Position numbers and translations under genes: made by a program. Positions 5,363 through 63,022 of a stretch of 64,000 bases of DNA are shown here, one piece after another. Source of the DNA: Escherichia phage BME3; sequence record PP239276.1, one strand, 5' to 3'. Position 1 is the first letter of the stretch, and each line of letters begins with the position of its first letter. A model generated the notes under the pieces. It did not search any database and was not told the origin of the DNA. It saw only the letters and a list, made by a program, of their open reading frames with translations.

Positions 5363-5569
5363 ATGAATATTAAAATTTACAAACTGTCTGGTTCTATGAT
5401 TGCTGTCCAGTACGACAATGAAGATCGTTATGTTCTCCTCCAGGATGCTTGGTTAGATGATCCTAATGTATTCACTGTCCTGCGAGAACTACGTTCTGTC
5501 TATACCTATTCTTCTAAAGATGGTTTTGATAGTTCAACGATGGAATTGGTAAAAGAGGAGAATGTGTAA
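5363..5569 (+). CDS. hypothetical protein
   Basis: internal ATG at 5363 with AAGGAG RBS; start codon overlaps upstream stop. Confidence 0.45.
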   Translation: MNIKIYKLSGSMIAVQYDNEDRYVLLQDAWLDDPNVFTVLRELRSVYTYSSKDGFDSSTMELVKEENV

Positions 5570-5769
5570 TGAGTAAAGATATTCACTTAACTCGTGAAGA
5601 GTTACAAACCATTATGGAAGATGCTTTCATTGATGGTTGGAAACAAGGTCAAGAGTCAGATTGGTATGATGCCGAAGATTTTTTGTATTATCATATGACT
5701 GCACCTGTAGACGAGCAAACACACTCTGAAACAACTTTGGCTTTAATTGATCTTAAGGCTGGTGTATAA
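5569..5769 (+). CDS. hypothetical protein
   Basis: 66 aa, translationally coupled (TAATG overlap), AAGAGGAG RBS. Confidence 0.5.
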   Translation: MSKDIHLTREELQTIMEDAFIDGWKQGQESDWYDAEDFLYYHMTAPVDEQTHSETTLALIDLKAGV

Positions 5770-10649: not shown

Positions 10650-11336
10650 TTGGAAAATACAAAAATTGGTGTTGGTGTTATTACTGTAGGTAAGCGTCCT
10701 CTTAAAGATTATCTTGTGACTGATCCTAATGCTACTTTTGTTGTACAGTATGATCGGGAACGAAAAGGTGTTGCATATGCCCGTAATGAACTGATGAAAA
10801 AGTTTTATGATGAAGGGTATGATTACTGGTTTATCTTTGATGATGATTGCTATCCGGTTGTGCCAGGTTGGGAAACATATTTTGTAAAACAGGCTAAGGA
10901 AAATGGCTGGGATTTCTTTGGTATGCCTGAATACTTTAAAGATAAAGTAAAAGGTATTGAAGGTGAAGTGGTTATTTGGGAACTAGGCATGTGCCAGTTT
11001 GGTATGTATTCCCGTGCAGTTATTGAGAAAGCTGGCTATTTCCGTTCATACACCCACGGTTACGGATATGAAGATGCAGAGTGGATTCAGCGTGTTCCAC
11101 TGGCAGGTTTGAACCGAGGTATTCACGGCGTACCATGTCCTATTCGAATTATGGCGTTTATCCATCCTGACGATGTGTTTGGAGATAATCCTTTACCTTT
11201 TGCGAATCTGTCAAAAGAAGAGAAAGAACAGGGGATTGGTGTAAACTGGGAACAATATAAACAATCACTGGAGGATCTTCGCAATGGTAAAACTTTTATC
11301 TCTTATGAGGAGGCTCAAAAATATGGTAAATCCTAA
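10650..11336 (+). CDS. putative GT-A fold glycosyltransferase
   Basis: TTG start after AAGGAG; N-terminal IGVGVITVGKR and acidic DxD motif FIFDDDCYP. Confidence 0.45.
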   Translation: MENTKIGVGVITVGKRPLKDYLVTDPNATFVVQYDRERKGVAYARNELMKKFYDEGYDYWFIFDDDCYPVVPGWETYFVKQAKENGWDFFGMPEYFKDKVKGIEGEVVIWELGMCQFGMYSRAVIEKAGYFRSYTHGYGYEDAEWIQRVPLAGLNRGIHGVPCPIRIMAFIHPDDVFGDNPLPFANLSKEEKEQGIGVNWEQYKQSLEDLRNGKTFISYEEAQKYGKS

Positions 11337-13534: not shown

Positions 13535-15307
13535 GTGTCTTATGTTGTAAATAAATATGGGTATAACATTGATCTAAGTCAAGAAGGACATACTGGGTGT
13601 CCTCGTTGTATGAAAGGAGGGCGTGATCGATCACAAAACAATTTGATGGTATATGGCTTAGATGCCGATGAAGACCATCGAGGCGCACATTGTTTTTCTT
13701 GTGGCTTTACTATCCCTGATCAAAAATGGTTAAATGCACACGGCGAAGAAATTGAAGAGGAGGATATCTTGGGTAGTGAGTTTAATCCAGAAGTACATGA
13801 TAAACTAAAAGCCAGCACTGGGACTAATCCAAAAGGTTATCGCGGTATTCGTGAAGATATCTCTAAGCCTTTCGGTGTACGCTATATGTACGATGAAGCT
13901 ACTGGCGAAGTAATTTCAACACTATACCCTACAACTAAAGATTACAATATTGCTGGGTATAAACAACGTATCGATCCAAAAGATTTTTCGCATCCTATCG
14001 GTGAAACAGGAAAGGATTGTGATCTTTTTGGGGAGTTTAAATATCGTAACCACAGCGGTACTATTCTAATCGTTGGTGGTGAACACGATATGCTGGCTGC
14101 AACACAGATGCTAAAAGATTATAACAAGGGTGGTAAATATCCTGTTCCTGCTGTAGTATCTGGTACTTGTGGCGAAACATCTCTGCATAAGCAGCTTCAA
14201 CATCGTTATAAATTCTTAGATCAATTTAAAAAGATTGTTCTGTGTATGGATAATGATGAAGCTGGACGTGCAGCAGTTGAGAAATGTGTTAAAATCTTAC
14301 CACGTAATAAAGTTTACGTGATGGAACTAACGGATGTTAAAGATCCTAACCAGGCACTAGTAGAAGGAAAAATTGATCACTTTCTTGATCGCTTTTTCAA
14401 AGCTAAACTGTACACACCTGCTGGTGTTTATGCTTCTAACGTACTGTATGAAGCAGCCTTGGAATGTCTGGAAGCTAAAATGATTACTCTTCCTCCATTC
14501 ATGCGTGTTGCTTCTAATATGTTAGGTGGAGGCTTGGTAGAAGAAGAAATTACTGTTATACTTGCAAAAACAAGTATTGGTAAGACACTGTTGGTTAACG
14601 AGATTACGAAACACATTATTCTTGCACACCCAGAACATACTCTTGGTATTTTATCTTTGGAGGCAACGTATAAGAAGTATTCTCGTAACTTACTGTCTTC
14701 ATTCTTGCACATCCCTCTTCACCGTAAAACAAAAGAAGAGAAGGAAAAGATTTTAAAAGATAATGAAGAAAAGATTCGTGATTTTTACGAACGGGAAGAT
14801 GGAACACCACGTTTCTATGTTTGTGATGATCGTGGAGCTAACGTAGATGTGATTAAAGAGAAGGTTCTGGAAATGATTATTTATTTCGGAGTAACCATTC
14901 TTGTTATCGACCCTTATTCTGACTTGCTTTCTGGTATGGACGTGTCACAACAAGAGGAACTTGCGACGTGGCTCAAACGCATTATGAAAGAGTACGCAAT
15001 CACCATTGTTGTAATTTCACACGTTAAAAAGTCTTCTAACAATAGTAATGAACATATTGTAGAAGATGATGCAATGGGTAGTAGCTTCCTTGCTAAAGGT
15101 GCTGGTATCACAATTGCGCTGGAGCGTGATAAACAAGCTGAAGATCCTATGGAACGTAACCGCACATATTGCTACATCCTAAAGAACCGTGAGTTCTCAG
15201 AGACTGGTGCAGCAGGTAGTTTCTTCTATGAGATTAAAACAGCGACACTTCACGATTACGATCAATACACAAGTAACCCAGAGAATATTCCTGATGGTTC
15301 TTATTAA
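13535..15307 (+). CDS. bifunctional DNA primase-helicase (T7 gp4-like)
   Basis: GTG start after AGGAGA; N-terminal zinc finger CPRC...CFSC; TOPRIM-like VLCMDNDEAGRAA; Walker A AKTSIGKT and Walker B VLVIDPYSD. Confidence 0.8.
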   Translation: MSYVVNKYGYNIDLSQEGHTGCPRCMKGGRDRSQNNLMVYGLDADEDHRGAHCFSCGFTIPDQKWLNAHGEEIEEEDILGSEFNPEVHDKLKASTGTNPKGYRGIREDISKPFGVRYMYDEATGEVISTLYPTTKDYNIAGYKQRIDPKDFSHPIGETGKDCDLFGEFKYRNHSGTILIVGGEHDMLAATQMLKDYNKGGKYPVPAVVSGTCGETSLHKQLQHRYKFLDQFKKIVLCMDNDEAGRAAVEKCVKILPRNKVYVMELTDVKDPNQALVEGKIDHFLDRFFKAKLYTPAGVYASNVLYEAALECLEAKMITLPPFMRVASNMLGGGLVEEEITVILAKTSIGKTLLVNEITKHIILAHPEHTLGILSLEATYKKYSRNLLSSFLHIPLHRKTKEEKEKILKDNEEKIRDFYEREDGTPRFYVCDDRGANVDVIKEKVLEMIIYFGVTILVIDPYSDLLSGMDVSQQEELATWLKRIMKEYAITIVVISHVKKSSNNSNEHIVEDDAMGSSFLAKGAGITIALERDKQAEDPMERNRTYCYILKNREFSETGAAGSFFYEIKTATLHDYDQYTSNPENIPDGSY

Positions 15308-60598: not shown

Positions 60599-60695
60599 TG
60601 GCAGCAAGGTGAGGAATCGAACCCCTTGATCTATGGTTTGGAGCCATATTGAGTACCATACTCTTTTAAATCTACCCGGCTATGAGTTCCTTGAA
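60599..60695 (-). tRNA. tRNA-like, possible Trp(CCA); 5' half aberrant, 5' end uncertain
   Basis: CCA, acceptor 3' strand, T-loop AATCGAA and canonical anticodon arm with loop CUCCAAA; no matching 5' acceptor strand at expected distance. Confidence 0.3.
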
Positions 60696-61972: not shown

Positions 61973-62047
61973 TGGTGCTCCCACAAGGACTCGAACCCTG
62001 ATAAGTTGCTTACAAGGCAACCGTAATAGCCGTTATACGATAGGAGC
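61973..62047 (-). tRNA. tRNA-Thr (UGU)
   Basis: CCA, acceptor with G-U pairs, T-loop ACTCGAA, anticodon stem GTTGC/GCAAC loop CUUGUAA. Confidence 0.65.
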
Positions 62048-62053
62048 AATACT

Positions 62054-62130
62054 TGGACTCGACAGGATTCGATACCTGCAATTCCAGAAGCCTCTTGGCG
62101 ACTGGGGGTTTACCTTAACTCTACAAGTCC
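62054..62130 (-). tRNA. tRNA-like, atypical (8-nt T-loop, unresolved anticodon arm)
   Basis: 7 bp acceptor pairing 62055-62061 with 62124-62130; T-arm folds only with 8-nt loop ATTCGATA. Confidence 0.3.
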
Positions 62131-62137
62131 ATAATTC

Positions 62138-62222
62138 TGGCGATGGATCAAGGATTTGAACCTTGCTAGAACTTTCGTTCACGGATTAACAGTCCGTCGC
62201 CCAACCACTAGGCCAATCCATC
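62138..62222 (-). tRNA. type II tRNA whose anticodon reads GUU
   Basis: CCA, perfect acceptor, T-arm CAAGG-ATTTGAA-CCTTG, variable-arm hairpin GAAC-TTTC-GTTC, anticodon stem ACGGA/TCCGT loop CUGUUAA. Confidence 0.5.
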
Positions 62223-62229
62223 TTTAATT

Positions 62230-62316
62230 TGGTGCAGGTAGTTGGACTCGAACCAACGAAGCCCAGAAGGGCAAGAGATTTACAGTCTCCAGCAATTGCC
62301 GCTATGCGATACCTAC
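62230..62316 (-). tRNA. tRNA-Tyr (GUA), type II
   Basis: CCA, perfect acceptor, T-arm GTTGG-ACTCGAA-CCAAC, 16 nt variable arm, anticodon loop CUGUAAA. Confidence 0.7.
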
Positions 62317-62321
62317 GTGTT

Positions 62322-62397
62322 TGGTACATCGTGAAGGATTCGAACCTTCGACCTTGGAGTTAAAAGCCCCTTGCTCTACCAACTAAGCTAACGATGT
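62322..62397 (-). tRNA. tRNA-Lys (UUU)
   Basis: CCA, perfect acceptor, T-arm GAAGG-ATTCGAA-CCTTC, anticodon loop CUUUUAA. Confidence 0.65.
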
Positions 62398-62522
62398 ATA
62401 AATTATCTTTAAAATAGCCAGTGTTTGCGGCACTTGACTATGGGATATCGGTAAGATGGTGGGGCCATCTGCCGAAAGTTTACTCTGTTAAAGTAAGATG
62501 ACAAGCTACATTAAAGATAACT

Positions 62523-62787: not shown

Positions 62788-62877
62788 TGGAGGAAGATAA
62801 TGGAGTCGAACCATCACCGTATCGCTACAATGGGCCAGGGTTCAAACCTGGTTGCGCACCGCTGCGCCCTACCTTCC
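62788..62877 (-). tRNA. tRNA-Ser (UGA), type II
   Basis: CCA, acceptor, T-loop AGTCGAA, 19 nt variable arm, anticodon stem CCAGG/CCTGG loop UUUGAAC. Confidence 0.65.
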
Positions 62878-62940: not shown

Positions 62941-63022
62941 TGGCCGGGGTGACAGGATTCGAACCTGCATACTCCAATTACTCGGTTAACGCCTGATTAG
63001 AAGTCAGGTGAGATACACCCCG
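62941..63022 (-). tRNA. tRNA-like with Arg(UCU) anticodon arm, apparently lacking a normal D arm
   Basis: CCA, perfect GC-rich 7 bp acceptor, T-arm ACAGG-ATTCGAA-CCTGC, anticodon stem CCTGA/TCAGG loop CUUCUAA; only 7 nt between anticodon stem and 5' acceptor strand. Confidence 0.4.

Follow-up and report, generated by a model that had tools for sequence, protein, structure and literature searches.

The 64,000-nucleotide (nt) stretch of Escherichia phage BME3 analyzed here (PP239276.1), referred to in the following as the window, encodes on its minus strand, at positions 62138–62222, a tRNA-Asn(GUU) with the long variable arm of a class II tRNA. Such an arm is limited, according to textbooks, to tRNAs for leucine, serine, bacterial tyrosine and selenocysteine (Sec), where it serves as an identity mark for the synthetases; an earlier note on this DNA was right to regard it as normally confined to Leu, Ser and Tyr tRNAs. 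The window gene has a GUU anticodon and Asn identity elements and so belongs to none of these isotypes. Its class II body, with a 4-bp GNRA-capped hairpin and a 3-nt spacer on the 3′ side, sets it apart from every cellular tRNA-Asn. The gene is likely to encode a working phage tRNA-Asn from a virus-restricted class of long-arm tRNAs, which would be charged with asparagine by the host and decode AAC and AAU codons.

ARAGORN called the gene as an 85-nt tRNA-Asn(gtt) at 62138–62222 (−), within a set of 16 minus-strand tRNA genes between 60518 and 63395. The RNA, GAUGGAU UG GCCU AGUGGUU GGGC G ACGGA CUGUUAA UCCGU GAACGAAAGUUCUAG CAAGG UUCAAAU CCUUG AUCCAUC G CCA, has all the features of the Rfam tRNA family RF00005 (a 7-bp acceptor stem, a D-arm with G18G19, a 5-bp anticodon stem, a 7-nt loop with U33, a 5-bp T-stem and a UUCRANY loop). 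It scored 56.5 bits with the RF00005 model (gathering score 29), which placed GUU in the anticodon loop and aligned 12 nt as an insertion in the variable region. The minimum free energy (MFE) structure was a cloverleaf with a variable-arm hairpin (−29.5 kcal/mol, z = −2.57). A pattern combining a GUU anticodon loop with a T-arm and, between them, an extended variable region gave a single match in the window, with none expected from 100 shuffles.

The acceptor stem is formed by GAUGGAU (62216–62222) and AUCCAUC (62142–62148), with Watson–Crick pairs at all seven positions, beginning with G1-C72, A2-U71 and U3-A70. The D-arm, GCC(U)-AGUGGUU-(G)GGC (62199–62213), has a 3-bp stem according to ARAGORN, with a U13-G22 pair possible in addition, and contains C11-G24, which is invariant in the alignment of homologues. 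The anticodon arm, ACGGA-CUGUUAA-UCCGU (CGGACUGUUAAUCCG; 62181–62197), carries the anticodon at 62188–62190 (AAC on the plus strand), as given by both ARAGORN and the Rfam alignment. The variable arm of 15 nt (62166–62180), evident from the sequence, the MFE structure and ARAGORN, consists of a 4-bp stem GAAC/GUUC, a GAAA tetraloop of the GNRA type and an unpaired UAG on the 3′ side, and is thus a stem-loop longer than the 10 nt that define the class II architecture. It is followed by the T-arm, CAAGG-UUCAAAU-CCUUG (62149–62165), which, like the 3′ acceptor strand, is evident from sequence, MFE and covariation, and the gene ends with the discriminator G73 (62141) and an encoded CCA (62138–62140). 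The earlier note had described this same architecture: a perfect 7-bp acceptor stem, a T-arm, a variable-arm hairpin that it read on the plus strand as GAAC-TTTC-GTTC (GAAC-GAAA-GUUC-UAG in the RNA), and a CUGUUAA loop at exactly 62186–62192; ARAGORN and Rfam both return its anticodon arm. Its reservation that this might be a mis-fold is refuted by three methods (ARAGORN, Rfam and free-energy folding) and by covariation, and the fold is real.

The tRNA cluster was 99% identical to that of Escherichia phage W22 and 96–98% identical to those of other phi92-like phages (Justusliebigvirus, Stephanstirmvirinae), where annotated relatives label the gene plainly tRNA-Asn. Used as a query, the 85-nt gene matched 154 phage records and gave no BLAST match in 5,426 complete E. 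coli genomes. The sequence was identical within Justusliebigvirus and 75–93% identical in a Klebsiella phage, in PVP-SE1 (Vequintavirinae) and in the phAPEC8 group, while T5-like Demerecviridae (Lindwurm, Stubb, PSTCR5) yielded partial matches. A query of the T5-like type matched 617 phage records, including Klebsiella myoviruses (≈165 kb), an Aeromonas phage and jumbo phages. The homologues, from Stephanstirmvirinae, Vequintavirinae and Demerecviridae, measure 82–86 nt, and the tRNA-Asn(gtt) that ARAGORN called in these phages was 83–86 nt long.

When nine homologues were aligned, 98.6% of the cells in the five helices were paired, and both sides had changed at 13 pairs. The acceptor and variable-arm helices were each paired in 100% of cells, with compensatory pairs at 5/7 and 3/4 positions, respectively; the variable-arm stem occurred as GAAC/GUUC, GAGA/UCUC, GAGU/ACUC, GUUC/GAAC and GUC/GAC. 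The covariation score was reached by 0/500 shuffles, and no slid register approached it. The GAAA loop, the GUU anticodon, A37-A38, G73 and CCA were invariant. Because its stem covaries, is fully paired and does so beyond what shuffles produce, the variable arm is, on this comparative evidence, a structural element under selection. The same alignment showed subfamily-wise covariation of the Levitt pair 15-48, which is G15-C48 in the T5-like sequences and A15-U48 in the phAPEC8 group; G15 stands with G48 in the window gene and in the Klebsiella phage and PVP-SE1 homologues.

In E. coli, the identity of tRNA-Asn resides in the three anticodon bases and G73 (PMC9976931), and the window tRNA has all of these (G34, U35, U36 and G73). 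Compared directly, its anticodon stem-loop was identical to that of E. coli asnT. The body differs from that of bacterial tRNA-Asn, which is type I with a variable loop of 4–5 nt, in having a 15-nt region with a 4-bp hairpin. It also has G1-C72 in place of U1-A72, the GatCAB determinant in the transamidation route; U1-A72 is not required in E. coli, which has an asparaginyl-tRNA synthetase (AsnRS). The comparison of Tyr and Asn identity elements that the earlier note had proposed came out for Asn, the discriminator being G73, and its idea of a recoding or identity-switch tRNA fails on the full E. coli Asn identity set and the asnT-identical anticodon stem-loop. The 7/5 stems, and a discriminator that fits the isotype of the anticodon, are likewise not those of the identity-switched nev-tRNAs and allo-tRNAs.

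Some evidence counts against this assignment, and comparisons of tRNA cores have little power for Asn. In isotype hidden Markov models (HMMs) with the anticodon loop and variable arm masked, the window core scored best as Gln (26.1 bits), followed by Asn (23.4), Ser (20.4) and Tyr (20.1), although the Asn model was weak in cross-validation (27/82). The cores of long-arm Asn genes from viruses (described below) were likewise assigned to Cys (27), Asn (25), Gln (16) and Tyr (14), by the same weak Asn classifier. In a low-power comparison of masked cores, the nearest neighbor of a long-arm Asn gene was a short Asn in 27/111 and a Tyr in 5/111 cases among the matches listed. Together, the neighbors and the HMMs show only that Tyr and Ser are not favored. 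Finally, the identity rules were established on type I tRNA-Asn, so that charging of the window tRNA with asparagine is predicted from its sequence elements.

The window gene is not an isolated case. A scan of viral contigs with the pattern CTGTTAA-N(20-30)-GGTTCRAWTCC gave at least 120 matches. Loci from three such scans (Asn, Lys and Asp loops) were passed to ARAGORN; as these loci were selected, the frequencies given here are not population estimates. Raw pattern counts were rejected as proof of Asn specificity, since the Lys and Asp control patterns also had many matches, and ARAGORN-confirmed long-arm genes were counted instead: at least 104 for Asn, at least 70 for Lys (CUUUUAA) and at least 24 for Asp (CUGUCAC). 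Among the matches listed, to which all numbers in this and the next paragraph refer, the distinct tRNA(gtt) genes of viruses that have a long arm numbered at least 111, their variable regions measuring 10–24 nt. G73 was present in 103 of the 111, and the 1-72 pair was U-A in 68 (61%) and G-C in 42, much as in short Asn genes (n = 79; G73 in 73, U-A in 47, G-C in 25, variable loop of 3–9 nt). The arm had a stem of 3–4 bp in 75/84 cases and 3–4 unpaired nucleotides on the 3′ side in 52/84, and its loop was mostly of the GNRA type (GAAA 22, GCAA 7, GUAA 6). Viral tRNA-Tyr (n = 72) had A73 in 71 and G1-C72 in 61, mostly with a 3-bp stem and three unpaired nucleotides. Viral tRNA-Ser (n = 113) had G73 in 81, never U1-A72, a stem of 4–7 bp and a single unpaired nucleotide in 72/99, and viral tRNA-Leu (n = 108) had A73 in 104, G1-U72 in 48 or G1-C72 in 44, mostly 3–5 bp and two unpaired nucleotides in 33/55. 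Judged by discriminator, 1-72 pair and arm geometry, the long-arm Asn genes therefore have Asn-type acceptor ends and an arm that is Tyr-like and unlike that of Ser. Their D-loops, at 9–11 nt rather than the 7–8 nt of short Asn genes, are enlarged as in true class II tRNAs, and ARAGORN called a 4-bp D-stem in 68/111. A variable region below 10 nt was also output by ARAGORN for 42, 20 and 15 viral tRNA-Leu genes in the three locus sets, either as a parsing artefact or because short-arm tRNA-Leu exists.

Long arms were found on many other isotypes that are normally type I. With loci selected by a different anticodon in each case, the long-arm fraction was 26/77 for Thr(UGU), 18/58 for Cys(GCA), 12/57 for Asn(GUU), 26/127 for Met(CAU), 13/70 for Trp(CCA), 14/83 for Lys(CUU), 7/64 for Lys(UUU) and 2/79 for Phe(GAA); it was 0/27 for Thr(GGU), 0/89 for Ala(UGC) and 0/48 for Gly(GCC). 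The discriminator of their own isotype was present in most of these genes: A73 in 57/74 for Lys, G73 in 23/25 for Asp, U73 in 17/18 for Cys, G73 in 13/13 for Trp and C73 in 8/8 for His. Masked HMMs assigned the cores to their own isotype in 19/25 cases for Asp, 14/18 for Cys, 38/88 for Lys and 14/31 for Thr, which is about the rate for short-arm genes. As judged from sequence, the long-arm class thus covers Asn, Thr, Lys, Cys, Met, Asp and other tRNAs that keep the identity elements of their own isotype. The general picture is of cognate bodies to which an arm appears to have been added, the opposite of nev-tRNAs and allo-tRNAs.

The class is essentially restricted to viruses. A GAAA-loop version of the pattern had at least 120 matches in the viral collection and 26 in the genomes of 185,579 species (one genome each), all 26 in metagenome-assembled genomes (MAGs). 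About 19 of the 26 were real long-arm Asn genes, nearly all within dense arrays of 5–40 tRNAs. Long-arm tRNA(GUU) is thus almost absent from cellular genomes. In MAGs of Pirellulaceae, 39–40 tRNA genes lie within ≈7 kb and, on a chromosome-level MAG, 12 within 1.3 kb. Each of these arrays includes a long-arm tRNA-Asn; they represent either phage DNA that was binned or arrays of tRNA genes that are mobile.

In the phage, the tRNA-Asn would be transcribed together with its neighbors in the minus-strand cluster; a promoter-like site at 62504–62477, weak as evidence, lies upstream of the Lys, Tyr and Asn tRNA genes. Host AsnRS would then charge it through the GUU anticodon and G73, and the charged tRNA would decode AAC and AAU, of which this AT-rich phage makes abundant use. 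In the open reading frames of the window, Asn codons account for 57.9 per thousand, compared with roughly 39 per thousand in E. coli K-12.

As to the arm itself, we tentatively suggest that it may shield the tRNA from host tRNases such as AriB of the PARIS system. AriB cuts the Lys(UUU), Thr(UGU) and Asn(GUU) tRNAs of E. coli between positions 40 and 41, and both growth and infection are rescued when their T5 counterparts are co-expressed (Belukhina et al. 2025, PMC12409363). An AlphaFold 3 model places one AriB monomer at 40/41 and the other at D-loop nucleotides U16-U17, and the variable arm is nowhere mentioned in the main text of that paper (PMC12409363). The variable region is the link from position 43 to position 48, the pairing partner of position 15, and so would lie between the two modeled contacts. 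Emerging beside 40/41, the arm would act as a steric shield, or as a non-host mark, against tRNA-cleaving defences, and it would let the phage tRNA keep a host-identical anticodon arm that is fully compatible with synthetases and modification enzymes. On a similarly cautious footing, adding a hairpin to type I tRNAs might be a general and unrecognized counter-defence of phages, by which tRNases that read the body of the tRNA, AriB among them, would be kept off, and an alternative to mutating the cleavage site.

The exact AriB target set, Thr(UGU), Asn(GUU) and Lys(UUU), is encoded within 430 bp of the window. By ARAGORN and motif comparison, the tRNA-Thr(UGU) (61973–62047, −) and tRNA-Lys(UUU) (62322–62397, −) are both type I and have U39 substituted, reading UAAGCA and UAACUC, respectively, at positions 36–41, where both host tRNAs read UAAUCA. 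The short-arm Lys, Thr and Asn tRNAs of T5 read UAAACC, UAAGCA and UAAGUU. The long-arm tRNA-Asn has none of the 40|41-site substitutions of the AriB-resistant T5 type: its UAAUCC is identical to the cleavage-site sequence of the short-arm host asnT. In a first set of enteric phages, the host motif was kept in 10/11 long-arm genes and in 0/8 type I genes. Phage Bas33 (HildyBeyeler, NC_105119) has a long-arm tRNA-Asn of 86 nt (5551–5636) with a GCAA loop and intact host motif and a long-arm tRNA-Thr(UGU) of 87 nt (10775–10861), with the arm A-GGA-GUAA-UCC-CGUU and an intact UAAUCA; no Lys(UUU) gene was found in its tRNA region. Bas33 was rescued from PARIS by T5 tRNA-Lys alone, and Bas34 needed T5 tRNA-Asn though it is annotated with its own (PMC12409363).

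The 77-nt tRNA-Asn annotated in Bas34 (SelmaRatti, MZ501103; ≈14598–14681) has a long-arm body identical to that of Lindwurm, with a 3′ acceptor strand, ACCCGCU, that is unable to pair with GGGUCGU, and ARAGORN did not call it. Judging from this sequence, the gene is probably dead, which could explain why Bas34 needed the T5 tRNA. With its broken acceptor stem, Bas34 is uninformative as a test of shielding. A GenBank note that the T5 tRNA-Asn is not convertible to an amber suppressor was not usable either, because that tRNA is type I.

A number of findings count against a shield. When phages were searched with host asnT, type I tRNA-Asn genes that retain UAAUCC came up in phages MK-13 (Shigella), Se-G (Salmonella) and Sureiya (Serratia), raising the intact type I genes to 3/11, and PVP-SE1 has a tRNA-Asn that combines a long arm with a substituted site. 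A strict rule by which type I genes have a mutated AriB site and long-arm genes an intact one was rejected on the three type I genes. Over viral contigs, the fraction with intact UAAU among the matches listed was only slightly higher with a long arm than with a short one (0.52 and 0.44 for Asn, 0.46 and 0.41 for Thr, 0.68 and 0.49 for Lys, the loci again being selected ones), and this global test was set aside as weak. Cys, Trp and Val, for which no link to a nuclease is known, are also among the long-arm isotypes, and the cleavage of tRNA-Asn by AriB is itself weak (PMC12409363).

It is a realistic possibility, slightly more likely than the shield although below even odds, that the tRNA is a normal Asn decoder and that the long arm has no adaptive role, being a tolerated insertion that is inherited and also passed on when phages exchange tRNA clusters. 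The pairing of the hairpin would then be kept only because an unstructured insertion would upset folding. The variable region lies outside the Asn identity elements, so that the tRNA should tolerate an insertion at this place; long arms are present in many isotypes, and the complementarity between arm and AriB site is weakened by the counterexamples above. Moreover, GNRA is also the commonest loop in the arms of ordinary viral Ser and Leu tRNAs among the matches listed. However, the near absence of such tRNAs from cells, compared with their abundance and diversity in viruses, argues for a virus-specific advantage. The use of long arms is also strongly dependent on the isoacceptor, as shown by Thr(UGU) and Thr(GGU), Ala(UGC) and Gly(GCC), and the enlarged D-loops that accompany the arm, as in true class II tRNAs, point to an integrated core rather than a random insertion. 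Such probability as is left by the shield and by a neutral arm goes to other virus-specific roles, such as stability, processing or a mark of self.

We consider it unlikely that the tRNA is not primarily an adaptor in translation but a decoy or competitive inhibitor that soaks up tRNA-targeting nucleases of the host, offering them the anticodon arm of the host on a body that cannot be cleaved or cannot be charged. The anticodon arm is indeed host-identical, including the AriB site, and some overexpressed viral tRNAs have been suggested to inhibit AriB competitively (PMC12409363). However, G73, U1-A72 and an encoded CCA are as frequent in long-arm Asn genes as in ordinary ones among the matches listed, suggesting selection for aminoacylation, which a decoy would not need, and the demand of the phage for Asn codons is high.

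More doubtful still is charging by seryl-tRNA synthetase (SerRS), which would place serine at Asn codons as a deliberate mistranslation or recoding. SerRS recognizes the class II shape and G73 (PMC7609411, PMC9976931), and Ser identity makes no use of the anticodon, resting instead on the long arm together with G73 and the conserved pairs G1-C72 and G2-C71 (PMC9976931). The window tRNA does have a long arm, G73, G1-C72 and C11-G24, and the arm of the phage tRNA-Ser(GCU) is likewise 15 nt long and GAAA-capped. Nevertheless, it has A2-U71 where G2-C71 is absolutely conserved in E. coli tRNA-Ser (PMC9976931), although G2-C71 is present in the T5-like homologues. Its arm of 4 bp with three unpaired 3′ nucleotides departs from a Ser arm, with a stem of at least 5 bp and about one unpaired nucleotide in the reference type and of 4–7 bp with a single nucleotide in 72/99 viral genes among the matches listed; it is chiefly by its length and orientation that the arm determines Ser identity. 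U1-A72, found in 61% of long-arm Asn genes, occurred in 0/113 viral Ser genes among the matches listed. With the anticodon arm of host tRNA-Asn, AsnRS should compete effectively against SerRS, and a proteome-wide Asn-to-Ser substitution kept across three phage families is implausible.

That the gene is a tRNA-Tyr derivative with a mutated anticodon, still charged with tyrosine, as the earlier note had considered, is hardly credible: its Tyr likeness is limited to arm geometry (a short stem and three unpaired 3′ nucleotides, as in viral and E. coli tRNA-Tyr) and a T-arm that is almost that of tyrT (68% identity overall), besides the shared G34 and U35 and a tRNA-Tyr gene 7 nt away, whereas Tyr identity requires A73 and U35, Leu identity also requires A73, G73 in tRNA-Ser is an antideterminant against the leucyl- and tyrosyl-tRNA synthetases (PMC9976931), and the window gene has G73 and GUU instead of A73 and GUA, with G73 invariant in the nine homologues against A73 in 71/72 viral Tyr genes and a Tyr nearest neighbor in only 5 of 111 masked cores against 27 for short Asn, both among the matches listed. 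The adjacent gene (62230–62316, −), identified by ARAGORN and sequence comparison as a class II tRNA-Tyr(GUA) with A73 upstream of the tRNA-Asn, is no close paralogue, its 60% identity being at the level of unrelated tRNAs, and a recent duplication of it was rejected on this figure and on the differences in discriminator and stems.

Other tRNA-like elements lie in the same region. A gene at 62941–63022 (−), missed by ARAGORN, scored 38.6 bits with Rfam. It has a 7-bp acceptor stem, a 7-nt linker in place of the D-arm, an anticodon loop CUUCUAA (UCU, reading the Arg codon AGA), a variable-arm hairpin of 4 bp capped by GUAA, a T-arm, G73 and an encoded CCA. A near-consensus promoter-like site, TTGACA-17-TATAGT with a TG (63062–63034), ends 12 nt upstream of it. 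Conservation of this gene extends to 674 phage records, of which 253 reach a coverage of at least 80%, and there it is mostly unannotated or labeled tRNA-OTHER. The 90-nt spacer between tRNA-Asn and tRNA-Thr (62048–62137, −) folds at −27.2 kcal/mol (z = −3.28; 0/200 shuffles as good) into a structure that is closed by an 8-bp stem and contains an internal hairpin and a hairpin resembling a T-arm, GCAGG-UAUCGAAU-CCUGU, and recalls rna3, a ‘putative tRNA-like RNA’ annotated beside the tRNA-Asn of T5. The tRNA-Ser(UGA) at 62788–62877 (−) ends in ...CUUCC U CCA, with U73 where G73 is usual, and tRNA-Ser(UGA) of T5 shares this U73. The best Rfam model for the window gene was tRNA-Sec (35.3 bits, under the family threshold). 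Between tRNA-Ile and tRNA-Met, at 60602–60662 (−), there was a weak tRNA-like Rfam match of 22.9 bits, below threshold. In Salmonella phage PVP-SE1, an 86-nt gene annotated as tRNA-Lys (148–233) was called tRNA-??? by ARAGORN, with a four-base anticodon (ggca).

Full-text searches of the literature turned up no account of phage tRNAs for Asn, Thr or Lys that have a long arm, although an earlier mention is possible, many subscription papers lying outside their coverage; the PARIS Nature, eLife T5, Schlafen and retron papers do not mention a long-arm tRNA-Asn. Although annotations regularly list the gene as tRNA-Asn, its architecture, the way it is distributed and a possible connection with defence look new. 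Conservation of a class II tRNA-Asn, accompanied by covariation, extends over several phage families and hundreds of sequenced phages, and databases label long-arm genes as plain tRNAs. The class II architecture would appear to be acceptable to synthetases that do not encounter it in cells, among them the class IIb asparaginyl- (AsnRS), aspartyl- and lysyl-tRNA synthetases. Evasion of PARIS-type immunity with the anticodon arm left untouched is a testable idea, which may explain the puzzling rescue results with Bas33 and Bas34. As a simple marker in the sequence, the long arm could also help to recognize tRNA clusters of viruses within metagenome bins.

Compared with known tRNAs, the window tRNA-Asn shares with E. 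coli tRNA-Asn(GUU) (asnT/U/V/W) the anticodon, the CUGUUAA loop, the whole anticodon stem-loop, G73 and an encoded CCA. The E. coli tRNA differs in being type I and 76 nt long, with a 5-nt variable loop, a 4-bp D-stem and U1-A72, whereas the phage tRNA is 85 nt long and has G1-C72, a hairpin arm of 15 nt and a D-stem called as 3 bp. It resembles bacterial class II tRNA-Tyr(GUA) in the 3–4-bp arm stem, the three unpaired 3′ nucleotides, G34, U35 and the T-arm, but tRNA-Tyr has A73 and A36, while G73 and U36 of the window tRNA are Asn identity elements and Tyr antideterminants.

With the anti-defence tRNAs of T5 (PMC12409363), the window tRNA shares the isoacceptor, the location in a phage tRNA cluster and the context of host defence. 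The tRNA-Asn of T5 itself is type I, 78 nt long, and escapes by substitutions in the site (UAAGUU), whereas the window tRNA combines the host site UAAUCC with a long arm; in the T5-like phages Lindwurm and Bas33, a long-arm tRNA-Asn occupies a locus beside tRNA-Cys. The nematode nev-tRNAs and other eukaryotic tRNAs with a long variable (V-) arm also combine a class II architecture with anticodons other than Leu, Ser or Tyr, but nev-tRNAs are Leu-type bodies with foreign anticodons, in which codon and amino acid are mismatched (Hamashima et al., PMC3333845), while the body of the window tRNA matches its anticodon. Allo-tRNAs and other 8/4 tRNAs are, like the present gene, irregular long-arm tRNAs of bacteria and phage tRNA clusters (Mukai et al. 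2017, PMC5389517). They have 8/4 or 9/3 stems, Sec-like D-arms and Ser identity whatever the anticodon (PMC5389517), whereas the tRNA of phage BME3 has a 7/5 body and the identity elements of tRNA-Asn.

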